From: Candidatus Schekmanbacteria bacterium RIFCSPLOWO2_02_FULL_38_14
Lineage (GTDB): Bacteria; Schekmanbacteria; GWA2-38-11
Direction of reading: 5' to 3'
DNA length: 64,000 nucleotides
NCBI GenBank assembly: GCA_001790855.1
Contig: MGDH01000022.1
Location: forward strand, 7,116 to 71,115
The number at the start of each line of letters is the position of its first letter. The first letter of the stretch is position 1. The notes beneath the pieces were generated by a model. The model ran no database searches, was not told the origin of the DNA, and worked only from the letters and a program-made list of their open reading frames with translations. Position numbers and translations under genes: made by a program. This document shows, one piece after another, positions 2,548 through 52,040 of this stretch.

Positions 2548-3681
2548 ATGATAAAATTAAAAATATTTTTTGACTGGTTACAGGTGTTTTTGTTTTCAAT
2601 TATAATCTTCTTAACAATACCGTATACTCCTCTCTTGTGGAAGGTTTTATCTCAGGATCAGAAATCTTTTGTAATTTTTGGAATTTATCTATTGTCTTTT
2701 TCATTTATATTTTCAATCTTAATTTATCTTTTTTTCTACAAAAAAGAAAGAATGCTATTGCCTTATTTGTGGCTTTTAATAATTGCTTTTTTATATATTT
2801 TATTACTTAAGAATCTGAATGAATTTCCAGTTGAAAAGATTCATCTTGTAGAATACGGCATATTAGGATTACTTACATTTAAAGCATTAAAAAATAGTAT
2901 AAAAGATTTAACTGTCTATATATTGTCATTTGTAATTACATTTTATGTAGGGATGTTTGATGAAGTAATTCAATGGATAGTCCCTAATAGAGTTGGTACG
3001 ATTGAAGATGTTTGGCTCAATGTAAAAAGCAGTCTATTAATTTTGATGTTAATAGGATTAGTAATAAAACCTAAAGAAATTACAACAAATATGCATTTAA
3101 GGGATTTAAAAAGAACATATATTCCAATTTCACTGGCTGTAATAGTCACTGGAATATTTATAAACACTATTCACGGATTTGGTTTTAGAATTGAGGTAAA
3201 TGATTATATTGAAGCCTATTCTCGCTTTTCAAAAACAGAGCTAAGATTAATTAATAACTTGCTTAAAAATGATTCATTTTTGCTGGAATCAACTGCTAAA
3301 AAGTTTGAGAGCGTTGATGTATTAAATTTGAAGATCCTTTCAGAAGATGGTAAAAGATTAACTTTTTTTAAAGAAGCTGCTGACCATAAATGGGAAAGAG
3401 ATCACTCCTTTTCTAAAAAAAGATTTATTAAGAGCCTGAATGAACAAATTATACTCATGAATTATTATTCTTCCCTTTTTTATTTTGATTTTTTTAAATG
3501 GAGCGATGGGAAAAAAATATTTGTTGAAAGGTTTTTTCAGAATGAATTGTCAGAAAAGAGAATTTATAAAAGCCCTGTTTGCGGTATTTTGATAACTGAA
3601 TTTTCAAAACTGCATATGTGGGTATTTATTATTTTTACAACTGTAATCTTTACTATTTTATTTATTAAAACCAAGGGATGA
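2548..3681 (+). CDS. VanZ-like membrane protein with C-terminal extension of unknown function
   Basis: Multi-TM N-terminus. VanZ-like motif FDEVIQWIVPNRVGTIEDVWLNVKSS (D-E-x-x-Q...R...D...N). Confidence 0.4.
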   Translation: MIKLKIFFDWLQVFLFSIIIFLTIPYTPLLWKVLSQDQKSFVIFGIYLLSFSFIFSILIYLFFYKKERMLLPYLWLLIIAFLYILLLKNLNEFPVEKIHLVEYGILGLLTFKALKNSIKDLTVYILSFVITFYVGMFDEVIQWIVPNRVGTIEDVWLNVKSSLLILMLIGLVIKPKEITTNMHLRDLKRTYIPISLAVIVTGIFINTIHGFGFRIEVNDYIEAYSRFSKTELRLINNLLKNDSFLLESTAKKFESVDVLNLKILSEDGKRLTFFKEAADHKWERDHSFSKKRFIKSLNEQIILMNYYSSLFYFDFFKWSDGKKIFVERFFQNELSEKRIYKSPVCGILITEFSKLHMWVFIIFTTVIFTILFIKTKG

Positions 3682-8622: not shown

Positions 8623-9720
8623 ATGAATAAAAAATATAACTATAATTTAAGAAAATATAAAAAAGAAGACATGAAAGAAATTTTTGAACTCATGAGATTT
8701 ATCTATCCAGAAGAAAAATATAATAATTTTATTCATCGAAGGAGAAAAATGTGGGAGTGGGAGTTCTTGGAAAATCCTTTGATAAAAAAAGGGGAGGAAA
8801 AAATTTGGGTTGCTGAAGATAGCGGAAAAATTATAGGACATGTTGCAACTATGCCAGTGAAGTTGAAATGTGATGACAAATATTACATTGCCCATTTTGC
8901 AATGGATTTAATAGTTGATAGTGCTTATAGAGGGAAAGGTATTGGACAGGGTTTAATGGAAGCTTGGAGAGATAGTAGCGAAATAGCTATTGGACTTGGC
9001 TTAACTCCTGCGGTCTTACCAATCTATTATAAGTTGGGATGGAAAGTTTTTAATACAAAAAAGGTATTGGTAAAGGTATTTAAAAGTAGAAAAATTTTGA
9101 AAAAATTAATAAAAAAAGAAAATATTTTATTGAGAACTGGAGAAAAACTAATTAATTCTGGATTAAAGGCTTTTAACTTCGTTTTGAGTAAGCCTTTAAA
9201 AGTAGATTGGAAGAGTATTTTTGAAATTTATGAATTTGATTCAAAGATTGATATTTTTTGGGAAAAAGTAAAGGATGATTATAACATTGCTTTGAGAAAG
9301 AGTAAGGATTATTTAAATTGGAAATATACCAATCATCCCTATTACCAGTATAAAAAGTTTTATTATATGGGAAAGGATGGAATTAAAGGATATGTAGTTT
9401 TAAGGGAATCAGAGGAAGAGGGTTATTGCGAAGGGCATATTGTAGATATGATGACAAGAGCAGATGATTTTAAATCGATGGGTTTAATGGTAGCATGGAT
9501 AATTGATTATTTTAGAAAAAATGGAGTAGAATGTATTTACTTTATGACCACATGTGCAAATCAGAGAAAAGTGCTTTTAAGGAATGGATTTTTACCTCTT
9601 AAGAGAGGTCCTGTTTTTTCTGTCTATTCCCACGATAAAGATTTGCTTAAAAGATTATGGAGTTTTAACGATTGGTTTCTAACCAAAGATTCTTCGGATT
9701 TAGAAATATCTTACATTTAA
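8623..9720 (+). CDS. GNAT-fold acyltransferase (FemAB/GNAT-like), start adjusted to second Met
   Basis: HFAMDLIVDSAYRGKGIGQGLMEAW resembles the GNAT acyl-CoA binding motif. The ORF is longer than a minimal GNAT, so it is Fem-like. An upstream in-frame Met at 8587 would overlap the deacetylase gene, so the start at 8623 is preferred. Confidence 0.5.
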   Translation: MNKKYNYNLRKYKKEDMKEIFELMRFIYPEEKYNNFIHRRRKMWEWEFLENPLIKKGEEKIWVAEDSGKIIGHVATMPVKLKCDDKYYIAHFAMDLIVDSAYRGKGIGQGLMEAWRDSSEIAIGLGLTPAVLPIYYKLGWKVFNTKKVLVKVFKSRKILKKLIKKENILLRTGEKLINSGLKAFNFVLSKPLKVDWKSIFEIYEFDSKIDIFWEKVKDDYNIALRKSKDYLNWKYTNHPYYQYKKFYYMGKDGIKGYVVLRESEEEGYCEGHIVDMMTRADDFKSMGLMVAWIIDYFRKNGVECIYFMTTCANQRKVLLRNGFLPLKRGPVFSVYSHDKDLLKRLWSFNDWFLTKDSSDLEISYI

Positions 9721-9751: not shown

Positions 9752-10933
9752 TTAAAAATTCTGTTTTAACCTCTCTACTTTTTTAAGATATTCATAGAAC
9801 TTTTTAGCCTGTTTTTCCCAAGTAAATTCTTCCTCTACTAACTCTATCCCAGAATATCCTATTTCTTTTAGGTTTCCTCGCAGATTATAGGCTCTTAGAA
9901 TTCCATCCTTAATATCTAAAGGATTAGAAGAATCTATAAATATTCCACATTTCCTTTCTTTTATTATCTGAAGGTGAGCATCAATTTTGGTTAAAATTAC
10001 AGGCTTCCCCATAGCCAGATATTCCATAAGTTTTAAAGGGCTACTCATTCTCCACCAAAGAAGATCAGGTAAAGGCAAAAGGCCTACATCACACATACCT
10101 ATAAAGATTGGGACAATATCGTATTCTACAGGGTCATGAATTATTATATTATTTTCAAGCCCATTTTCTGCCACAAAACGTTTAAGTTCATTTTCCACAT
10201 TTCCTCTCCCGAGTATAAAGAAACATAATTCTGGTATTTCATCTCTTAAAAGTTCTACAGCCTTGACAGCATCAGCAATCCCCCTTGATATACTTATTCC
10301 ACCATGATACATAACAACAAATTTATCCATTAATTTAAATTTCTCTCTTAAGCTTTTTACAGATTTTGGATTGAAAAGCTTCAGAGAGACACCCGATGTC
10401 CATATCCCCATTCGTTCTTTTTCTATTCCATAATCCTTAGCAATTTTATCTCTGTAAAGTGGAGTAATAACCGTAAATCCATCAAATAAATATTTACATA
10501 AGTAAATTGATAATTTAAATCTTAAGATATGAATTTTATCCTGAATTCCAAATGTATCAACAGGAATACTTCTTATGTCTAATACAAACTTTGTTTTTAT
10601 AATCCTGAGTTTAGATAATATATTGAAAGGAAACGTTGTTAACACGCAGTAGTGGTCAAGAATAACGTAATTATAATCCTTAAATATTACTTTGAATAAA
10701 AGGTAGAAAAATAGTGAAAATTGAAATGAAATACTTGATAAAAAAAAATTTCTTGGATATGGAAGAAAAGATACGTCCAAGTTTTCAACAGAGAGCGATT
10801 TCTTGTTTTTTAATGCTGGAATGAGTAATTTTACTTTATTGCCAAGCTTTTTTAACTCAAAGGCCATTTCTTGCCAAGTGGCAATATCGAGATTTTCATT
10901 AAAGTCAGTTTGAGTTATCCAGATAATTCTCAT
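9752..10933 (-). CDS. Glycosyltransferase family 4 (GT-B fold)
   Basis: C-terminal half VVMYHGGISISRGIADAVKAVELL...FFILGRG...E...ENNIIIHDPVEYDIVPIFIGMCDVGLLPL matches the GT4 retaining-glycosyltransferase domain. Confidence 0.7.
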   Translation of the reverse strand: MRIIWITQTDFNENLDIATWQEMAFELKKLGNKVKLLIPALKNKKSLSVENLDVSFLPYPRNFFLSSISFQFSLFFYLLFKVIFKDYNYVILDHYCVLTTFPFNILSKLRIIKTKFVLDIRSIPVDTFGIQDKIHILRFKLSIYLCKYLFDGFTVITPLYRDKIAKDYGIEKERMGIWTSGVSLKLFNPKSVKSLREKFKLMDKFVVMYHGGISISRGIADAVKAVELLRDEIPELCFFILGRGNVENELKRFVAENGLENNIIIHDPVEYDIVPIFIGMCDVGLLPLPDLLWWRMSSPLKLMEYLAMGKPVILTKIDAHLQIIKERKCGIFIDSSNPLDIKDGILRAYNLRGNLKEIGYSGIELVEEEFTWEKQAKKFYEYLKKVERLKQNF

Positions 10934-26085: not shown

Positions 26086-27285
26086 TTATAATTTTTTAAG
26101 ATTTAGTATTCTGTCAAAAATCTTCTCTGCAACTTCTTCTTTTGAGAGTTTTGGCAGGTCTTTAATTTTTCCATTTCTGTCTATAAGCTTGACAATGTTT
26201 GTGTCAGAATTAAAACCTGCACCATTCTGAGTTACATCATTTGCAACTATGAGGTCGCAGTTTTTTTCTTTAAGTTTTTTCTGGGCGTTTTTTATAAGGT
26301 TTTCAGTTTCTGCGGCAAAGCCCACAAGAATCCTTTTTCCTTTTTTCTTTCCCACCTCAAGCAATATGTCAGGAGTTTTTTCAAGTTTCAGGGTAACAGA
26401 TTCTTTCTCATCTTTTTTAATTTTGGCGTAAGATTCTTTTTTGGGTTTGAAATCAGAAACAGCAGCAGCTTTGATTATCATAGTGGATTCCGGGAGATTC
26501 TTGAGAACTGCTTCTCTCATTTGCGAAGCAGACAGAACATTTATTATTTTTGCACCGGGAGGGAAGGGAATACCGGTCGGAGCGCTTACCAGGGTTACAT
26601 CTGCCCCCCGGGCTAAAGCTACCTTAGCAAGAGCATAACCCATTTTCCCGCTTGAGCGGTTAGTGATATATCTTACAGGATCAATTGCCTCCTGAGTTCC
26701 TCCTGCAGTAATTAATATTTTTTCTCCCTTGAGGTCTGATTTCTGAAGCAAAGTTTTTTTTACTTTTTCAATTATCAATGAAACTTCAGCTAATTTTCCT
26801 ATACCCTCATCTCCACACGCAAGCTCGCCTGTCTGCGGCTCAATAAATTCAACTCCAAGGGATGATAGTTTTTTTATATTTTCTTTTGTTGTATGATGCA
26901 GATACATATTTGAGTTCATGGCAGGGGCAATTAGTATTTTTCCTCTAAATGCTAAATAAAAAGTTGAAAGAAAATCATCAGCTATGCCGCTAGCAAACTT
27001 TGCAATAATATTGGCTGTTGCAGGGACCACAAGGAGGAGGTCAGTTTCTTTTGCGAGGTTTATATGGCAGACATCAAACTCTGACGGAAGATCAAACTGC
27101 CCACTTATTACCCCGTTTTTTGTAAGAGTCTGTAGGGTTAAAGGAGTTATGAACTCACAAGCATTTTTTGTCATAATTGCAGTGACTGAAACTCCTGCTT
27201 TTCTTAATTCTCTTACAATTTCGCAAGCCTTGTAAGCAGCAATTCCGCCTGTTATTCCGAGAACTATATTTTTACCCTTAAGCAC
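26086..27285 (-). CDS. coaBC: Bifunctional phosphopantothenoylcysteine decarboxylase / phosphopantothenate-cysteine ligase
   Basis: N-terminal flavoprotein MLKGKNIVLGITGGIAAYKACEIVRELRKAGVSV plus a C-terminal CoaB ligase domain. Length is 399 aa. Confidence 0.85.
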   Translation of the reverse strand: MLKGKNIVLGITGGIAAYKACEIVRELRKAGVSVTAIMTKNACEFITPLTLQTLTKNGVISGQFDLPSEFDVCHINLAKETDLLLVVPATANIIAKFASGIADDFLSTFYLAFRGKILIAPAMNSNMYLHHTTKENIKKLSSLGVEFIEPQTGELACGDEGIGKLAEVSLIIEKVKKTLLQKSDLKGEKILITAGGTQEAIDPVRYITNRSSGKMGYALAKVALARGADVTLVSAPTGIPFPPGAKIINVLSASQMREAVLKNLPESTMIIKAAAVSDFKPKKESYAKIKKDEKESVTLKLEKTPDILLEVGKKKGKRILVGFAAETENLIKNAQKKLKEKNCDLIVANDVTQNGAGFNSDTNIVKLIDRNGKIKDLPKLSKEEVAEKIFDRILNLKKL

Positions 27286-27331
27286 AGTTTAAGATTTTTA
27301 CCCGTTATAAGTTTTGTATCATATTCTTTTT

Positions 27332-27438
27332 TGTCATTGCGAGCGATAGCGAAGCAATCTCGGTTTTTAGCTATTAGCTGATAGCTGTCAGTATTGTAAT
27401 GAGATTGCTTCGTCGCTAAATAGCTCCTCGCAATGACA
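27332..27438. repeat. Palindromic repeat element, copy 1 (about 107 bp; arms GTCATTGCGAG...CGAAGCAATCTC)
   Basis: Left arm TGTCATTGCGAGCGATAGCGAAGCAATCTC and right arm GAGATTGCTTCGTCGCTAAATAGCTCCTCGCAATGACA are inverted complements. The central loop holds GCTGATAGCTGTCAG. A second copy lies at 50507..50623. Confidence 0.7.
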
Positions 27439-27467
27439 AAGACTTTTTTCAACAGCCTGTTAAAGCT

Positions 27468-27493
27468 GTTTAGGATTTCGAATTTAGAATTTT
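27468..27493. repeat. AT-rich interspersed repeat GTTTAGGATTTCGAATTTAG, copy
   Basis: Identical 20-mer at 45696. Related copies at 52004 and, in reverse complement, at 49435. Confidence 0.6.
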
Positions 27494-27497
27494 CCCC

Positions 27498-27995
27498 CTA
27501 CTCAACCACAATCAGTGTGTCTCCTGCATTTACAACAACCCCTTCTTCAACTGCTATCTCTTTTACTACACCTTTACTTGACGACTTAAGCTCGTTTTCC
27601 ATCTTCATTGCCTCAACTACGATCATTCCTGCCCCGGACTCAACTTCTTCTCCTTCTTTTACCAGTATCTTAACGATTTTTCCTGGCATAGGAGCCTTGA
27701 TAACCTGTTTTCCGCTTTCGGGTTCCTTTTTTTTCTGAGCCATCCGCCTTGTTGCTTCATCAAACACTTCAATTTCAAAGCTTTCACCACTTATATCAAC
27801 TATGTATTTATTTTCCTCGCTTTTAATATTGGAAAGATATGATTTGTTTGACACAATAAGGGAGTAGAGTTCCTTTTTAAAAAGAGTAGCATCAACATCA
27901 AATTCTTCACCGTCAATCTTTATAAGAAAAGACTTCTCTTTTCTTTCAATTTCAACAGAATATTCTTTATTCCCTACTAAAATGTCAAAAATCAT
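27498..27995 (-). CDS. Biotin carboxyl carrier protein (biotinyl domain protein)
   Basis: C-terminus IKAPMPGKIVKILVKEGEEVESGAGMIVVEAMKMENELKSSSKGVVKEI carries the EAMKM biotinylation motif. Start is placed at Met 27995 (MIFDILVG) to avoid a 113-nt overlap with the upstream biotin carboxylase gene. The start is uncertain. Confidence 0.6.
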   Translation of the reverse strand: MIFDILVGNKEYSVEIERKEKSFLIKIDGEEFDVDATLFKKELYSLIVSNKSYLSNIKSEENKYIVDISGESFEIEVFDEATRRMAQKKKEPESGKQVIKAPMPGKIVKILVKEGEEVESGAGMIVVEAMKMENELKSSSKGVVKEIAVEEGVVVNAGDTLIVVE

Positions 27996-28008
27996 TTTTA
28001 TGTTTTTT

Positions 28009-29514
28009 TTAGAGCCTGCTTCCCCACATCTGCCATTTGCCAGCAACTTTCCAGTGGTTTTTGGGCTGGTGACTCTGGTCATGGAAAAGCGATTCCTTTT
28101 CAGCCTTTTTGAATGATTCAATAACAGCAGTGAGAATGGCTATTTTGAGAGCCTCGTCTGAAGGGAAAGAAGAGGGTTCAATTCTTTTTGCTATAAAATT
28201 CGTATCAATATCACCTTCTATAAAATGTTTATTTGATATTACCTTTTTCAAGAAAGGTATTGTTGTTTTAATTCCTGTTATTGAATACTCATTTAAAGCC
28301 CTTAACATTCTCATTCGCGCTTCTTCTCTGTCTTTTCCCCATACAACAAGTTTTGAAATCAAAGGGTCATAGTGGACTGAGATATTGCATCCTTCATAAG
28401 CACTTGAATCATATCTGATTCCGTAACCTCCGGGACTACGCAGAGTTCTTATTATGCCGGGGGACGGAAGAAAATTTTTTTCAGGGTCTTCTGCGTAAAT
28501 TCTGCATTCCATTGCACAGCCATTTCTTTTAATCTTATCCTGTGTAAGTTTCAGCTTTTCTCCTGAAGCAATTCTTATCTGTTCTCTAACAATATCTATT
28601 CCTGTTACTATTTCAGTTATGGCATGTTCCACCTGAAGACGGGTGTTCATTTCAAGAAAGTAAAAATTATTCTTTTTATCTACAAGGAATTCAACCGTGC
28701 CTGCATTGGTATAGTTAACTGCTTTGACTGCCTTTAGTGCAGCAATTCCCATCCTCTCTCTGAGCTTATCATCCACAACAGTAGAAGGTGTTTCTTCGAT
28801 TATCTTCTGATGTCTTCTCTGGATTGAGCATTCTCTCTCAAAGAGATGGACACTGTTTCCATGCTTATCTGCCAATACCTGAATTTCAATATGTCTCGGG
28901 TTTTCAAGATATTTTTCAACATAGACAGAGGAATTCCCAAAAGCGGCACCTGCTTCTGAACGTGCAGCACGCACGCTTGATTTCAACTCGTTTTCTGTAT
29001 GAACAATTCTCATCCCTTTTCCGCCGCCACCGGCAGCAGCCTTAATCATTATTGGAAATCCTATCTCCTTGGCTATTTTAAAAACCTCATCATCATTCTC
29101 AATGCTTTCAGTTGTTCCTGGAAGGATAGGGATGCCAGCTTCAGCCATTATTTTTCTGGCTGTTGTTTTGTTTCCCATTTTTTCAATAACGTCAGATGAA
29201 GGACCAATAAAGGTTATTTTTTCTTTTTCACACTCTTGAGCAAACCTTGAATTTTCTGAAAGAAAACCATAGCCGGGATGGATTGCATCTGCTCCGCTTT
29301 CTTTTGCAACAGAGATGATTTTATCTATGTTAAGATAGCTTTTGATTGAAGCAGCTTCACCAATACAGTAGGCTTCATCAGCGAGACCTACGTGAAGGGA
29401 ATTTCTGTCGGGTTTAGAATAAACTGCAACTGTAGGGATGTTTAAATCCTGACAGGCGCGGATTATCCTTATGGCAATTTCGCCACGATTAGAAATTAAG
29501 ATTTTTTTAAACAT
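28009..29514 (-). CDS. Biotin carboxylase (AccC/PycA-like, with about 50-aa C-terminal extension)
   Basis: MFKKILISNRGEIAIRIIRAC...ADAIHPGYGFLSEN... and an ATP-grasp core. The protein is about 500 aa, longer than the canonical 450-aa AccC. No carboxyltransferase gene is adjacent. Confidence 0.85.
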   Translation of the reverse strand: MFKKILISNRGEIAIRIIRACQDLNIPTVAVYSKPDRNSLHVGLADEAYCIGEAASIKSYLNIDKIISVAKESGADAIHPGYGFLSENSRFAQECEKEKITFIGPSSDVIEKMGNKTTARKIMAEAGIPILPGTTESIENDDEVFKIAKEIGFPIMIKAAAGGGGKGMRIVHTENELKSSVRAARSEAGAAFGNSSVYVEKYLENPRHIEIQVLADKHGNSVHLFERECSIQRRHQKIIEETPSTVVDDKLRERMGIAALKAVKAVNYTNAGTVEFLVDKKNNFYFLEMNTRLQVEHAITEIVTGIDIVREQIRIASGEKLKLTQDKIKRNGCAMECRIYAEDPEKNFLPSPGIIRTLRSPGGYGIRYDSSAYEGCNISVHYDPLISKLVVWGKDREEARMRMLRALNEYSITGIKTTIPFLKKVISNKHFIEGDIDTNFIAKRIEPSSFPSDEALKIAILTAVIESFKKAEKESLFHDQSHQPKNHWKVAGKWQMWGSRL

Positions 29515-29585
29515 AGTATTAATTTTATTCTTTAACAAAAATAAAACCGAAAAGCAACAGAATTTTCTTCACTCTTTCATTTCTG

Positions 29586-45589: not shown

Positions 45590-45730
45590 TTATGTTTAAG
45601 TTCCAAATTCTAATATCTAAATCCTAAACAAATTCCAAATTCTAATCACCTAAATTCAAAACAAATTTGAAGATTTGAATTTTGGATTTAGATATTGTTT
45701 AGGATTTCGAATTTAGGATTTAATCCCACT
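45590..45730. repeat. AT-rich palindromic intergenic repeat cluster (GTTTAGGATTTCGAATTTAGGATTT and its complement)
   Basis: Left part TTCCAAATTCTAATATCTAAATCCTAAACAA and right part GATATTGTTTAGGATTTCGAATTTAGGATTT are mutual reverse complements. Family members occur at 27468, 47394-47500, 49430-49571 and 51975-52040. Confidence 0.6.
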
Positions 45731-47500: not shown

Positions 47501-49177
47501 TTAATAAACCCTTTTCTGTGGCTGATACTTTGTTACAGACACTGGCTCGTAGGAAATATTTATTTTTCCATCCTTGCCTTTTTTTGCGATAGTATGCTTC
47601 ATCCAGTTTTTGTCATTTCTTTCAGTATAGTCATTCCTGTAATGTGCTCCTCTGCTTTCCTTCCTGTTCAGGGCACCAAGGGCTATAATCTCAGAAATCG
47701 TAAGAAGGAACTCCATCTCAATGACTGAAGTGAGCTGTGTATTGTAAACAGTGCCTTTGTCCTGGATAAAAACTTTTTTTGCCCTTTCCTGAAGTTTCTT
47801 TATTTCTTTAAGAGCCTGTTCTATTTCATTACCGACTCTAAAGACCCCTACTTTGAATGTAAGAATTTCTGAAAGTTCTTTTCTTATTGCAGAGGATGAT
47901 TCTTTTCCTTTACGGTCAACAAGCTTCTTTATCCTTTTCTCTTCATCTTTTAGAATATTTTCGCTTATCTTGGAAAACTCAGCGGATGATACAAATTTTT
48001 CTAAATTTCTTCCGACTCTTCTGCCAAAAACAACTGTCTCAAGAAGTGAATTTCCTCCAAGCCTGTTGGCTCCGTGGACACTTACGCAGCCACACTCTCC
48101 AACCGCATACAGCCCTTTTATGTTTGTTTCTCCGTTAACATTATTCCTGATTCCGCCCATGGAATAGTGCTGTGCGGGTTGAACAGGCATTGGTTCTTTA
48201 ACTATGTCAACACCTGCAAATTTCTTTGCAAGCTCTTTTACCTGAGGGATCTTTTCATTTATTTTTGCTTCACCAAAGTGAGTTACATCGAGGTGAACAT
48301 ATTCATTCTCAAATCCTCTTCCTTCTCTTACCTCTATTTGTATACACCGAGAAACAACGTCTCTTGGGGCAAGTTCCATTTTTGATGGAACATATCTTTC
48401 CATAAACCTCTCATCTTTGTTGTTTTTAAGATATCCGCCTTCACCCCTTACACCTTCTGATACGAGAATGTTGGTTCCAAAAAGAGTTGTTGGGTGGAAC
48501 TGGACAAATTCCATATCAGCAAGAGGTGTTCCTATCTCATAGGCAAGAGCCATTCCATCACCGGTATTTATATGAGCATTGGTAGTTCGAGCAAAGGCTC
48601 TCCCATATCCCCCTGTTGCTAAGACTATTGCCTTTGTTTTCAAGAGTTCAAAATTACCTTTTTGCATATTATAGCAAATAGCACCTTTGCAGACCCCATC
48701 TTCTGCGATCAATTTGGTGACAAATCGTTCATTATAGATTTTTACATTGCTCTTAAGAAGTTGTTCATAGAGGAGGTGAAGAAGGGTATGACCTGTTAAG
48801 TCTCCAAAAAAACAAGCTCGAGGAAAGCTTGCGCCTCCTAGCTCTCTCTGGGCAATCTTTCCATCCTCAGTCCTGCTAAAGATTGCTCCCATGTGCTCTA
48901 TTTCGTAGATGTTTTCAGGGGCTTCCTTAATGAGAATCTCAATGGCGTTCTGGTCACCAAGATAATCGCCTCCCTTTACAGTATCAAAAATATGGCTTTC
49001 AAGAGTATCTTCAGGGTTAAGTACTGCATTGATTCCTCCCTGCGCTGCACCTGAATGGGAGCGTGTGGGATAGACTTTTGAAATAATTCCTACGTTGGCA
49101 TATTTAGATGCTTCTATTGCAGCCCTCATTCCTGCAATTCCTGCGCCGACTATGACTATGTCGTGGTAAATCATCAA
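47501..49177 (-). CDS. sdhA: Succinate dehydrogenase / fumarate reductase flavoprotein subunit
   Basis: FAD-binding [13 protein letters not shown]. The covalent-FAD histidine context [13 protein letters not shown] is present. Catalytic ...HYSMGGI... region. Length is 558 aa. Confidence 0.9.
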
Positions 49178-49193
49178 TTAATCTCCCTTCTTA

Positions 49194-49406
49194 TTAATAT
49201 AGTCTTACTATTTCTATTGCATCAACAGGACATTTTTCAAGGCAGAGATTGCACAGAGTGCATTCGTCTTCATTTGCCTCAACAGAGATTATGGTGTTAT
49301 CTTTCTTGTCAAAAATATTCACAGGACATATTTTGACACATTCACCACAGTCCTTGAATCCGCGGCATGTTTTCTGGTTGATTTTTATGTTTATGAAAAT
49401 ACTCAT
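49194..49406 (-). CDS. 2x[4Fe-4S] dicluster ferredoxin (70 aa)
   Basis: CRGFKDCGECVKICP and CTLCNLCLEKCP are two CxxCxxCxxxCP motifs. It lies 16 nt upstream of frdA on the same strand. Confidence 0.75.
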   Translation of the reverse strand: MSIFINIKINQKTCRGFKDCGECVKICPVNIFDKKDNTIISVEANEDECTLCNLCLEKCPVDAIEIVRLY

Positions 49407-49429
49407 CCTTTTCTCCCTCTGTGTATGAG

Positions 49430-49571
49430 TTATAAATCCTAAATTCTAATATCTAAATTCCCTGCCTGTCGGCAGACAGGTAAACAATATCAAAATTCCA
49501 ATTTTTAAAACTGTTTTGGATTTTGGTCATTTGAATTTGTTTAGAATTTAGAGCTTAGGCTTTAGAATTTT
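49430..49571. repeat. AT-rich intergenic repeat cluster plus GC hairpin CCTGTC-GGCA-GACAGG
   Basis: TAAATCCTAAATTCTAATATCTAAATTCC is the reverse complement of the 45696-type repeat. TTTGTTTAGAATTTAGAGCTTAGGCTTTAGAATTTT is a forward copy. A GC hairpin lies at 49461..49480. Confidence 0.55.
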
Positions 49572-50468
49572 TTATGATACATTCTTTCTAATAAGCTCTA
49601 TTATCTCAGAAAATTTTTCTGCAACAAGGATTCCTGCATCCCTGAATTTTTCTATTTTGCCTTTTGTACTTCCTCTATTTCCTTCAACAATTGCTGCTGC
49701 GTGGCCAAAACGGATACCCGGCATCTCATCAGCGAATCTTCCTGCAACAAATGCGATTATTGGAAGTTTGATTTTGTTTTCCTTTACAAACTCTGCAAGA
49801 AGTTCTTCTGCTGTACCTCCGGGTTCGCAGAAGATTACGATTGCCTTTGTCTGGTTGTCTTTCTGGAAAAGTGGAACGAGGTCAAGGTAGTTTGAACCGA
49901 CAATTGCATCTCCTCCAACGCTAATGCAGGTGCTCTGTCCGATTCCGTTTAATGTCAGGAGGTTGGCAATCTCTGTTGTCATTCCTCCGCTTCTTGAGAT
50001 TATTCCTATATTCCCTTCACTGTAAGCCTTCTTTACATCATCAACTCTTCCGCCAACCATTCCAATTTTGGTCTTGTGAGGCGATATTATTCCAAGGGAG
50101 TTTGGTCCTATTACTGTTGCGCCTTTTTCTCTTGCAAAAGCAACTATCTCAACTACATCCTTTCTTGGAACTCGTTCTGTTACAATGACAACAAGTTTAA
50201 TGCCATTATCAATCGCCTCAAGGCTTGCACCTTTTACCATTCCGGGCGGAACTGATATTATGCTTGCTTCAGCAGGGTGTACGGTTATTGCTTCTTTTAC
50301 TGTATCATAGACAGGGACACCGTAAACATCCCATCCGCCCTTGCCGGGAGTTATTCCTGCAACAACTTTTGAGCCGTAATCAAGTAAATCCCTCGTAAAA
50401 GTGGTTGCCTCTCTGCCGGTAATTCCCTGAATGATTATCCTTGTATTTTCATCAGCCAAGATTGACAT
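49572..50468 (-). CDS. sucD: Succinate--CoA ligase [ADP-forming] alpha subunit
   Basis: The CoA-binding N-terminus RIIIQGITGREATTF and the SRSGGMTTE segment are present. The expected phosphohistidine loop around GHAAAI is present. Length is 298 aa. Confidence 0.9.
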   Translation of the reverse strand: MSILADENTRIIIQGITGREATTFTRDLLDYGSKVVAGITPGKGGWDVYGVPVYDTVKEAITVHPAEASIISVPPGMVKGASLEAIDNGIKLVVIVTERVPRKDVVEIVAFAREKGATVIGPNSLGIISPHKTKIGMVGGRVDDVKKAYSEGNIGIISRSGGMTTEIANLLTLNGIGQSTCISVGGDAIVGSNYLDLVPLFQKDNQTKAIVIFCEPGGTAEELLAEFVKENKIKLPIIAFVAGRFADEMPGIRFGHAAAIVEGNRGSTKGKIEKFRDAGILVAEKFSEIIELIRKNVS

Positions 50469-50506
50469 CTCATTCTCCTTAATTTATCTCTTGAACTTTA
50501 TTTTTT

Positions 50507-50623
50507 GTCATTGCGAGCGACCAACGGGAGCGTGGCAATCTCATCTTTTACTTGGGAATGTTGTAACATGTTACTATAATTACTGAATTGAGATTGCTTC
50601 GTCGCTTTGCTCCTCGCAATGAC
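50507..50623. repeat. Palindromic repeat element, copy 2, inserted between sucC and sucD
   Basis: Arms TGTCATTGCGAGCGA...GGCAATCTC and GAGATTGCTTCGTCGCTTTGCTCCTCGCAATGAC match copy 1 at 27332..27438. It occupies most of the 182-bp sucC-sucD spacer. Confidence 0.7.
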
Positions 50624-50650
50624 TTTTTAAAACTGTTCACTAATCACTGT

Positions 50651-51829
50651 TCACTTACTCGCTCTCTCAACAGCCATTCTTGCGGCTTCATCTATTGAAA
50701 CGGTTCTGTCGCAGTATGGCACACCATATTTCTTCAATATTCTGAACCCTTCATCCTCCCAAGCGCCTGGAATTCTGAAAACGGTTATGGTTTCTGAAGG
50801 AACCTTGCCGCTTTCAATTACGCCTTTAACTACTCCTCTTGCTACCAGGTCAACTCTGGTGTTGCTGACTACATTCATTATGACTGCAATTTTATTGATT
50901 CCTGGCTTTGAAAGGATGTGCTTGACAAGTTCTTTAACTTTGAAAACAGAAGGGTTCCCTCCAATCTCACAGTAATTGGCAGGTTTGCCGCCATATTTTT
51001 TTATTGCGTCAAATGATGTCAGGCTCGCTCCACCGCCGCCAATCAGAAGACCGAGATTCCCGTCAAATTCAATCATTCTTCCTGCAACTCCACGATGGTC
51101 CATTTTGTCAATTTCCGCTGCCTTTTTCTCAAATTCTGTCTGCTTCTTTGACTGGCTTTCCCTTTCACCAAATTCTGCGACAAGACTCTTTTGGCGGTAG
51201 AGGGCATCGTCATCAATCTCAATATGTCCATCAAGGGCTATGAATTTCCCGTCCTTTGTTTTTCCAAGAGGGTTTATTTCAGCAAGGGTTGCATCATATT
51301 TCAGAAATACCTGAACGAGCCTGTAAAGAACCGATGAAATCTGGAGCAGGTCATTTCCATTTATTCCTGCCTGCGCGACCATTTCTCTTGCATGGTGTTC
51401 CTGAAACCCCTCAATGATGTTAAAACTTTTTCTTACAATTTTTTCAGGATTGGTTTTTGCCAGTTCTTCGATATCAACCCCGCCTTCAGTGCAGAAAATT
51501 ACAACGGGGAGTTTTCTTGTAGTGTCGTAGGTTGCAGCCATAAAGAGCTCTTTTTCAAGAGCTATCTGGTCTTCAACAAGAAGCTTTGAAACAAGGTGGT
51601 TCTTAATAGTGCTTCCGAGAAGCTGCTTTCCTTTATCTTTGGCTTCTTTTAAATCTTTTGAGAAAAGAACACCGCCTGCTTTTCCTCTGCCGCCTGTTGG
51701 TATCTGTGCTTTGATTACAGAAGGAGTTTCCGCCTTGATTTCATCAACAGACGAGACTACCTGCCCTTTGGGTGCCGGAATGTTGTTTGCCTGAAAAATT
51801 TTTTTACTTTCAAATTCATAAAGTCGCAT
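50651..51829 (-). CDS. sucC: Succinate--CoA ligase [ADP-forming] beta subunit
   Basis: MRLYEFESKKIF...IPAPKG ATP-grasp N-terminus. C-terminal ligase-CoA domain ...NPLG...GGGA.... Length is 392 aa. Confidence 0.9.
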   Translation of the reverse strand: MRLYEFESKKIFQANNIPAPKGQVVSSVDEIKAETPSVIKAQIPTGGRGKAGGVLFSKDLKEAKDKGKQLLGSTIKNHLVSKLLVEDQIALEKELFMAATYDTTRKLPVVIFCTEGGVDIEELAKTNPEKIVRKSFNIIEGFQEHHAREMVAQAGINGNDLLQISSVLYRLVQVFLKYDATLAEINPLGKTKDGKFIALDGHIEIDDDALYRQKSLVAEFGERESQSKKQTEFEKKAAEIDKMDHRGVAGRMIEFDGNLGLLIGGGGASLTSFDAIKKYGGKPANYCEIGGNPSVFKVKELVKHILSKPGINKIAVIMNVVSNTRVDLVARGVVKGVIESGKVPSETITVFRIPGAWEDEGFRILKKYGVPYCDRTVSIDEAARMAVERASK

Positions 51830-51926
51830 TTTCTAACTCCCAAAATATGCTTTGCTTTTAAGCTCAAGTTTATATAAAAATCGTGGCTTTCATATTGATA
51901 TTTGCTCTATTTGTCAAGGCAAAAAA

Positions 51927-52040
51927 CGAAGCAATCTTTTTAAAAAGCTGACAGCAGACAGCTATCAGCTTTGAGCATTTGGAATTTGAATAATTTAGAT
52001 ATTGTTTAGGATTTAGGATTTTGAATTTAGAAATTAATAT
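51927..52040. repeat. Partial palindromic-element fragment (CGAAGCAATCT + GCTGACAGCAGACAGCTATCAGC) followed by AT-rich GTTTAGGATTT repeat copy
   Basis: It shares CGAAGCAATCT and the GCTGATAGCTGTC motif with copy 1. It is followed by GATATTGTTTAGGATTTAGGATTTTGAATTTAG. Confidence 0.5.

Follow-up and report, generated by a model that had tools for sequence, protein, structure and literature searches.

Repetitive extragenic palindromic (REP)-type repeats are among the commonest non-coding elements of bacteria, and we know of no enzyme that mobilises the superfamily of them whose units carry a CGTC tag. In this work, we analysed a 64-kb stretch of contig MGDH01000022.1 from Candidatus Schekmanbacteria bacterium RIFCSPLOWO2_02_FULL_38_14 (hereafter the window, meaning all 64,000 nucleotides, to which window coordinates refer). 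It holds two palindromic elements: copy 1, between a gene for a biotin carboxyl carrier-like protein and coaBC, and copy 2, between a sucC-like and a sucD-like gene. We consider it probable that both are head-to-head doublets of REP-type palindromic units with CGTC or TGTC tags, and that they are small, non-coding, non-autonomous and similar to REPINs (REP doublets forming hairpins).

The CGTC-tagged REP superfamily was defined by Di Nocera, De Gregorio & Rocco (2013, BMC Genomics 14:522; PMC3733652). Its unpaired tag is often TGTC or CCTC, the unit measures 20–40 bp, the stem starts with A-T and T-A pairs and the short unpaired tail is mostly CCA. Units form mainly head-to-head dimers, often heterodimers, and lie 3′ of genes, mostly in unidirectional or convergent spacers and shortly after the upstream stop codon, with some in-frame intragenic copies. 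The stems are uninterrupted, of 8 bp in families 1 and 2 and 9 bp in families 3 and 4, and the loop has 4 nt in family 1 and 5 nt in families 2–4; the authors noted that bulged variants were possibly missed. Five phyla were reported as hosts, no gene for a REP-associated tyrosine transposase (RAYT) was flanked by CGTC units in any species examined, and there was no dedicated transposase. The same work equates the Rickettsia palindromic elements RPE-4 and RPE-6 with CGTC-4 and CGTC-1, and reports that Neisseria CGTC-1 elements cluster in mosaic intergenic regions.

REPINs, as described by Bertels & Rainey (2011; PMC3116915), are inverted REP doublets with a spacer that form a hairpin in single-stranded DNA or mRNA; their REPs are GTAG-tagged and flank the RAYT gene. 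An effect within an operon has been described for REP325 of the Escherichia coli yjdMN operon, which makes the upstream mRNA more stable and in part attenuates expression of the downstream gene, with Rho-dependent termination within the operon (bioRxiv 10.64898/2026.03.23.713779).

The elements and their units

The window contains four occurrences of the 11-mer GTCATTGCGAG (27333 on the + strand, 27427–27437 on the − strand, 50507 on the + strand and 50613–50623 on the − strand), against an expectation of 0.41 from shuffled sequence, and none of 100 shuffles reaches four. These occurrences form two inverted pairs, 27333/27437 and 50507/50623. A covariance model built from units with the longer, class B arm, and run with filters off, finds exactly four units in the window and none other below E = 1. 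Each element is a doublet of two inverted units of 31–39 nt with their tags outward, and a decayed third copy lies nearby:

27332–27362, + strand: copy 1 left unit, short class A arm (36.0 bits, E = 1.6e-6), in the order TGTC tag, ATTGC, GA, GC-GATA-GC, GAA, GCAAT, CTC tail
27363–27399, no strand: copy 1 loop, with the palindromic motif AGCTATTAGCTGATAGCTGTCAG inside it at 27369–27392
27400–27438, − strand: copy 1 right unit, long class B arm (48.5 bits, E = 1.6e-9), in the order TGTC, ATTGC, GA, G, GA, GC-TATTTA-GC, GA, C, GAA, GCAAT, CTC
50506–50543, + strand: copy 2 left unit, variant arm (23.3 bits, E = 0.0016), in the order TGTC, ATTGC, GA, GC-GA-CC-AAC-GG-GA-GC, GTG, GCAAT, CTC
50544–50588, no strand: copy 2 loop, 45 nt, with no relation to the copy 1 loop
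50589–50624, − strand: copy 2 right unit, class B arm (57.8 bits, E = 1.1e-11), in the order AGTC, ATTGC, GA, G, GA, GC-AAA-GC, GA, C, GAA, GCAAT, CTC
51914–51970, + strand: decayed third copy, in which the GCTGACAGCAGACAGCTATCAGC loop motif comes after a TGTCAAGGCAAAAAACGAAGCAATCT half unit

The original prediction, made from the letters of this DNA, had described a hairpin-forming palindromic repeat in at least two copies with differing central loops, and both points are borne out. It had also described the arms as inverted, shared by both copies and nearly identical. The first two properties stand; near-identity within one element does not, since in each element one arm is of the longer class B (GAGGAGC...GCGACGAA) and the other is shorter or a variant. 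All four units share one folding plan, the divergent arm at 50506–50543 included, and the type of that arm is abundant in metagenomes and also present in a relative (L255).

The decayed copy lacks its second arm and scores under the covariance-model threshold. A 45-nt fragment of it, 51926–51970, is 78% complementary to 27369–27413 (the copy 1 loop and inner arm) and adjoins a decayed TGTCA...ACGAAGCAATCT half unit; the truncated fragment that had been noticed upstream of sucC, near 51927, is therefore real and the remnant of a third copy. The copy 1 loop motif recurs there at 51947–51970, and again within the loop of a metagenome doublet (L258) that is unrelated; this palindrome, GCTGACAGC(N)GACAGCTATCAGC, may be a nested module of some doublets. 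A loose scan of the window for further tagged palindromes returned low-stringency noise only, and the 64 kb contain no tRNA or tmRNA gene.

The locus is identical (100%) in three independent assemblies (ENA, NCBI and JGI), so the repeats are not an assembly artefact. As the inverted units face each other, the whole doublet can fold as one long hairpin, in single-stranded DNA or in RNA. Indeed, the folding on both strands that had been proposed as a check gives long hairpins for both elements in either direction (−40 to −52 kcal/mol, z −6.4 to −7.0). Mechanically called open reading frames (ORFs) cross both elements, with 62 aa at 27264–27452 on the − strand and 51 aa at 50431–50586 on the + strand, and repeats of this kind are a likely origin of spurious small ORFs and 'hypothetical proteins' in annotation, the 62-aa ORF being one example.

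To describe the unit more generally, we used the pattern CATTGCGAG-N4-24-GAAGCAATC to collect 354 units at 240 public loci. Because this pattern fixed the C of the tag, the basal stem ATTGC/GCAAT and the GA/GAA loop, invariance of the public set at those positions is uninformative; the ATT...AAT start of the stem is present in all four window units, and a canonical CGTC-1 dimer found in another relative (L254, discussed below) also begins with AT. The conserved unit reaches beyond the search pattern, to Y-G-T before it and Y-(A/C) after it. Directly 5′ of CATTGC, G is found in 97% and T in 96% of the 354 units, position −3 is C (53%) or T (41%), that is, C/T in 94%, and the tail begins with C, followed by C (53%) or T (41%) and finally by A (42%) or C (45%). 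It is CTC in the window units and CCA in the alphaproteobacterial and L254 copies. The consensus reads YGTC tag, ATTGC, GA, variable apical hairpin, GAA, GCAAT and a C-Y-(A/C) tail.

The variable middle starts with G and ends with C in 162 of 180 distinct cases, and its terminal stem has a mean of 2.4 bp, against 0.5 when shuffled, with a maximum of 9 bp. Two forms prevail: the short class A apex GCGNAGC and the long class B form G-GA-GC-GNA-GC-GA-C, in some copies of which the tandem G·A positions become Watson–Crick pairs. The commonest apex is GCGNAGC with its 3-nt loop (106 of 361 units); loops span 3 nt to more than 60 nt, and those of the window units are GATA, TATTTA, AAC and AAA. Among 43 class B units, double-sided change affects 16 cells of the apical stem, compared with 2.7 in shuffled sets (0 of 500 as high), and the register is specific, with 82% of cells paired as against 14–52% when the partner is slid. 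The corresponding counts for 126 distinct model hits are 33 and 13.

A single unit is a hairpin with an unpaired YGTC tag, a 5-bp basal stem, a purine internal loop (GA/GAA) and a variable apical stem-loop, often with tandem G·A pairs and a GNA triloop, closed by a C-Y-(A/C) tail. In the doublet, two unlike units, one with a long and one with a short arm, face each other with tags outward. We base the unit hairpin on the covariation and on the G·A and GNA motifs, which the energy model does not credit; d(GCGAAGC) is an unusually stable DNA mini-hairpin. K-turn and hammerhead cores were also considered for the GA/GAA motif and were ruled out on reading the sequence, as strand lengths and conserved bases mismatch. 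At one locus (L073, about 10089–10175), a sister-type tagged unit, TGTCATTCTGAGCGAAGCGAAGAATCTG, is nested in a unit's apex and has the basal stem ATTCT/AGAAT; the basal stem therefore varies between sister subfamilies, with the GA...GAA plan retained.

Distribution and relation to CGTC-tagged repeats

The expectation of further copies beyond the window is confirmed in public collections. The unit pattern has at least 120 matches in viral contigs and at least 120 in species-representative genomes, and the variant arm of copy 2 (33 fixed bases) has at least 120 in metagenomes. Among the genome matches listed there are more than ten phyla, across which the unit is near-identical, with hosts in the Alpha-, Gamma- and Deltaproteobacteria, Chloroflexota, Bacteroidota, Patescibacteria, Cyanobacteria and Melainabacteria, Planctomycetota, Zixibacteria and Latescibacterota, and Ignavibacteria, as well as a Sporomusa (Firmicutes) and a Helicobacter. 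Among the metagenome matches listed, 113 of 125 occurrences of the copy 2 arm have distinct flank pairs, and the host DNA spans 26–64% GC. That the core stays almost invariant over this range of GC content, and in phage contigs, is difficult to account for unless there is a conserved trans-acting partner or horizontal spread is frequent.

Plasmids of cultured strains carry the unit as well (Methylosinus, Methylocystis, Novosphingobium, Legionella, Calothrix and Halomonas), in the Novosphingobium and Methylosinus plasmids as a long-plus-short doublet just 3′ of a gene. Related phage contigs differ in whether one particular intergenic site carries a unit, and one phage contig (L116) has an in-frame 90-nt doublet that is absent from its relatives. 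The annotation of the plasmid and phage records shows no feature at the matching sites, and a full-text literature search with the unit sequence and its typical translated peptides returned unrelated primer matches only. Contigs end at these units, so the units break metagenome assemblies. A 9.4-kb contig (L263) has the same doublet at both ends (60–95 and 9367–9402) with identical flanks, and is probably a circular replicon of ~9.3 kb, a plasmid or phage, that bears the element.

The units share much with the CGTC superfamily. The window tags are TGTC in three units and AGTC in one, on short palindromic units of 31–39 nt with an ATTGC/GCAAT basal stem and a covarying apical stem; the stem starts with A-T and T-A pairs, head-to-head dimers prevail and heterodimers are common. 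The positions also agree, being 3′ of genes, in unidirectional or convergent spacers, with in-frame intragenic copies and no associated transposase. The window tail, CTC, departs from the superfamily's prevailing CCA, which the alphaproteobacterial copies have. Unlike families 1–4, the unit has a 5-bp basal stem, a GA/GAA internal loop and an apical hairpin with G·A pairs and mostly 3-nt GNA loops, and its hosts go beyond the five phyla of the original description, adding Schekmanbacteria, Chloroflexota, Patescibacteria, Cyanobacteria, Planctomycetota, Firmicutes and phage contigs. Neither the window-unit sequence nor its typical peptides appear in the lists and supplements of intragenic REPs of that study (PMC3733652). 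With some doubt, we would therefore place the element in the CGTC-tagged superfamily as a new structural variant, set apart from families 1–4 by their described dimensions, and in a phylum where such repeats were previously undescribed. RPE-4 and RPE-6 are likewise CGTC-tagged palindromes able to insert in frame in genes, as in the L116 doublet; both window copies, by contrast, are intergenic, and the sequence subfamily differs.

Turnover at two sites and the question of mobility

Both window copies lie between co-directional genes:

26086–27285, − strand: coaBC (TIGR00521, 476 bits), downstream of copy 1
27498–28121, − strand: gene encoding a protein that resembles biotin carboxyl carriers; relative to transcription, it lies upstream of copy 1
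49572–50468, − strand: sucD-like gene, alpha subunit, 3′ of copy 2
50651–51829, − strand: sucC-like gene, beta subunit of a succinyl-CoA-synthetase-family enzyme (Pfam ATP-grasp_2 and Citrate_bind)

Copy 1 ends 46 nt short of the coaBC start codon. At this site, L254 (80% in CoaBC) shares 20 identical left-flank bases, GGCTGTTGAAAAAAGTCTTT, and a closely similar right flank that runs into coaBC. Between these flanks, the window has a doublet of the ATTGCGAG type, whereas L254 has TGTCATACCCGCGAAAGCGGGTATCCA and TGTCATTCCCGTGAAAACGGGAATCCA, a head-to-head canonical CGTC-1 dimer with 8-bp stems, 4-nt loops and CCA tails. Its type translates into VIPAKAGI and LDSRFRGND, the peptides given for CGTC-1 (PMC3733652). 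Judged by sequence comparison, one site thus bears two subfamilies between shared flanks. Another relative, L255 (85% in CoaBC), has at the same site a doublet with the arms of window copy 2 (2 mismatches in one arm and 2 one-base indels in the other) around a loop of 10 nt, compared with 45 nt in copy 2. Relatives at 87% and 74% have other sequences 5′ of coaBC.

Copy 2 had been placed in a 182-nt spacer between sucC and sucD, and the gene coordinates agree: the two genes lie 182 nt apart and the element occupies most of the spacer, 26 nt past the stop codon of the sucC-like gene. The gene names themselves hold as sucC/sucD-like only, as the pair scores under the NCBIfam SucC/SucD cut-offs (289.9 bits for the sucC-like product against TIGR01016, whose cut-off is 375.6). 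In four relatives, the same spacer is either empty or filled with something else, in favour of an insertion and against ordinary conserved intergenic DNA:

L250, SucD identity 82%: spacer of 42 nt, element absent
L251, SucD identity 80%: spacer of 46 nt, element absent
L249, SucD identity 89%: spacer of 452 nt, a degraded 23S-rRNA-IVS-protein gene between other repeats
L248, SucD identity 95%: scaffold gap and a different repeat

These empty or otherwise filled spacers mark the sucC–sucD spacer, on the sequences compared, as an insertion hot spot and the doublet as a lineage-specific gain. Taking both sites together, this lineage has acquired doublets, relatives carry them at different loci, and there is turnover at a fixed site. 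The window thereby offers a clean natural experiment in an uncultured phylum, with the same operon spacer empty, filled by a doublet or otherwise filled in close relatives.

The fillings differ in kind. In the L249 spacer (2549–3000), the degraded gene (PF05635) is split into ORFs of 73 aa and 38 aa and flanked by inverted GCAAAATGCAAA-type repeats, and looks like a different small insertion cassette. In L248, a widespread-looking repeat at 1780–1830, GCTCAGGATGCAGCATGGTGAGCTTGTCGAACC, adjoins the scaffold gap, another sign of repeats breaking these assemblies. The sucC/sucD-like pair may encode a citryl-CoA synthetase of the reductive tricarboxylic acid cycle and not a succinyl-CoA synthetase. 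It stands beside fumarate reductase and ferredoxin genes (window 47501–51829), and a biotin carboxylase and carrier pair lies elsewhere in the window, at 27498–29538.

The wider set of loci has the same organisation as the window. Tags point outward in 55 doublets, inward in 6 and in tandem in 11 (354-unit set), and in another count outward in 87 versus 5. Arms are of unequal length in 84 of 103 doublets, with an inter-arm gap of about 18–23 nt, and single arms and tandem runs of arms are found as well. Spacers with elements are unidirectional in 42 cases, convergent in 17 and divergent in 7, against a spacer background of 244, 55 and 60, and the corresponding figures for metagenome loci are 22, 7 and 2; half of the unidirectional cases lie at most 40 nt from the upstream stop codon. 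Of the 22 doublets at metagenome loci (L256–L375) that lie between co-directional genes, 16 have the long class B arm leading on the sense strand (p = 0.05), as do window copies 1 and 2 and L255, and this orientation bias of the heterodimer is borderline. No palindromic extension past the tag was found in the 103 doublets. In L284, L285, L263 and L293, doublets are nested in outer palindromes, such as GAGGCTGTGTCATAA...TTATGACACAGCCTC or AAACGCATTAAGTAAAG...TTAAATGCGTTTG, which recall the 'target palindromes' described in certain REP families; the sequence flanking window copy 1 on the left, CAGGCTGTTGAAAAAAGTC, partially resembles the first of these.

On the reading of the elements as REP-type, REPIN-like doublets, spread or renewal would have a single-stranded DNA intermediate on which an enzyme encoded elsewhere acts. 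That the core varies so little between phyla would reflect this enzyme partner or frequent transfer, perhaps by phages, and doublets would persist in spacers 3′ of genes because these positions are tolerant.

Several points weigh against this reading or limit it. The units miss the stem and loop dimensions of all four published CGTC families; the basal stem and GA/GAA loop, preset by the pattern, add nothing to the covariation counts; and nearest-neighbour DNA energies of single units show no gain over shuffles (z about 0). The depletion of divergent spacers is modest (roughly p = 0.04) and comes from a crude ORF caller, and copy counts for the source genome cover the 64-kb window, which limits what can be said of copy number. 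Most importantly, no mobilising enzyme was found beside the units at about 360 loci, so that we infer mobility only from presence or absence and from dispersal. When ORFs within 1.2–1.5 kb of the units at these loci were clustered, no transposase or other protein family recurred, the clusters holding phage structural genes and assorted housekeeping genes only. Within the window, where most ORFs lack annotation, no gene flanked by units was seen.

A bolder proposal, which we regard as possible and rather doubtful, is that the units form an orphan class of single-stranded DNA hairpins, shared across phyla and carried by phages, in which one conserved enzyme maintains 18 or more bases and elements are renewed in place instead of by random transposition. 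Renewal would then be a tag-directed copy-and-replace, akin to gene conversion, in which the interior is swapped between shared TGTCAT...ATGACA ends; the two subfamilies between shared flanks at the copy 1 site fit such a process. If true, these repeats would open a way to the missing mobilisation machinery of CGTC REPs, a question that dates from 2013. The more interesting points of the system are indeed the mobiliser, the conservation across phyla and phages, and this subfamily swap at one site.

That the doublets are REPINs in the strict sense, mobilised by a cognate RAYT of the same genome, is unlikely. In architecture they agree, with two inverted REPs that fold with their spacer as a hairpin; doublets are over-represented, singletons resemble decayed doublets (51914–51970 in the window), and GNA loops and G·A pairs would suit recognition by an HUH/Y1 enzyme. 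Against this stand the tag, which is YGTC and not GTAG, the lack of any recurring RAYT-like or Y1-transposase-like neighbour gene at the roughly 360 loci, and the earlier failure to find a RAYT gene flanked by CGTC units (PMC3733652). Furthermore, REPIN sequences are normally specific to a lineage, at the level of genus or species, whereas the present unit is near-identical in many phyla.

The original prediction had also left room for a miniature inverted-repeat transposable element (MITE) or a REP-type element, and the latter part holds. A classical MITE, that is, a deletion derivative of an insertion sequence with a DDE transposase, its arms serving as terminal inverted repeats for cut-and-paste movement, would account for inverted ends, a length of about 110 bp, intergenic positions, multiple copies and a presence that varies among relatives. 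We nevertheless judge it very improbable: 96 of 103 doublets show no target-site duplication, abutting direct repeats being as frequent as in the control, and no parent insertion sequence turned up at the roughly 360 loci. In addition, each arm is itself a covarying hairpin that also occurs alone or in tandem, the arms of one doublet are usually unlike, and no transposase family recurs near the units. The one locus that could speak for a MITE is L176 (Patescibacteria), where a 308-aa ORF at 665–1591 lies between a doublet and a third unit; from its motifs, it looks like an IS256-type transposase, and we judged its link to the units fortuitous.

Possible RNA-level effects and neighbouring repeats

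Copy 2 sits inside what is expected to be a polycistronic transcript and would form a very stable RNA hairpin, and REPs in E. coli operons can shift the ratio of upstream to downstream expression. These are the grounds for a dedicated cis-regulatory RNA of the sucCD operon, whether attenuator, RNase processing site or riboswitch-like element, an explanation in which we place very little belief. The spacer is empty in the relatives at 80–82% SucD identity and holds unrelated elements in those at 89% and 95%, and many phyla, and phages too, have the same doublet type in unrelated contexts. Rfam 15 gives zero matches at gathering score across the whole window, and relaxed thresholds add only long-hairpin matches of the miRNA-precursor kind, far sub-threshold. 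Furthermore, the orientation of singletons relative to the gene strand (25/27 at viral loci, 19/9 at genome loci) is unbiased overall, which argues against purely RNA-level selection.

An intrinsic (Rho-independent) or bidirectional terminator, repeated by chance, is likewise very improbable, as the G+C-rich stem in an A+T-rich genome and the TTTTT directly after copy 2 on the + strand, antisense to the genes, are set against A-runs and not U-runs 3′ of both copies in the sense direction, a terminator scan that found no terminator-like site at either copy on either strand, the position of both copies between co-directional genes that are adjacent in relatives, and a cross-phyla sequence conservation that is not a property of terminators.

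The AAGGAG ribosome-binding site of the sucD-like gene lies 8 nt before its ATG and about 22 nt past copy 2, outside the hairpin; with this site free and no sense U-tract, read-through is expected, and the doublet would be transcribed within the operon mRNA. At most, we infer by analogy with E. coli REPs, it would shield the upstream sucC segment from 3′ exonucleases or damp transcription into sucD. A role in intercistronic processing or stability, as the original prediction had suggested, is conceivable. It may skew the sucC:sucD ratio slightly, or may equally be neutral cargo in a tolerant spacer, and the consequence for the sucCD-like operon is probably mild. REP325 offers a parallel in lying between two co-transcribed genes; it differs in being a GTAG-type REP cluster in another organism, where the effect was measured.

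The elements also have neighbours among other short repeats. As in the bacterial interspersed mosaic elements (BIMEs) of E. coli and the neisserial intergenic mosaic elements (NIMEs), REP-type units are interleaved with other repeats, here the TTTAGGATTTCGAATTT family and the GCTGACAGCTATCAGC motif, and the spacers, as hot spots, vary from one close relative to the next. The partner repeats are of different sequence, NIMEs being built on dRS3, ATTCCC-N8-GGGAAT. In the window, a second dispersed repeat with TTTAGGA/TTTCGAA/TTTAGAA-like heptamers (TGTTTAGGATTTCGAATTTAGAATTT) is found at 27457–27493, 45596–45722, 49528–49564 and 51993–52029. It adjoins copy 1 and the decayed copy, and forms a palindrome with 56-nt arms at 45605–45721. 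Contigs of relatives also end in this heptamer repeat (L376, 1–15; L248, about 1828–1845; L255, about 2465–2480).

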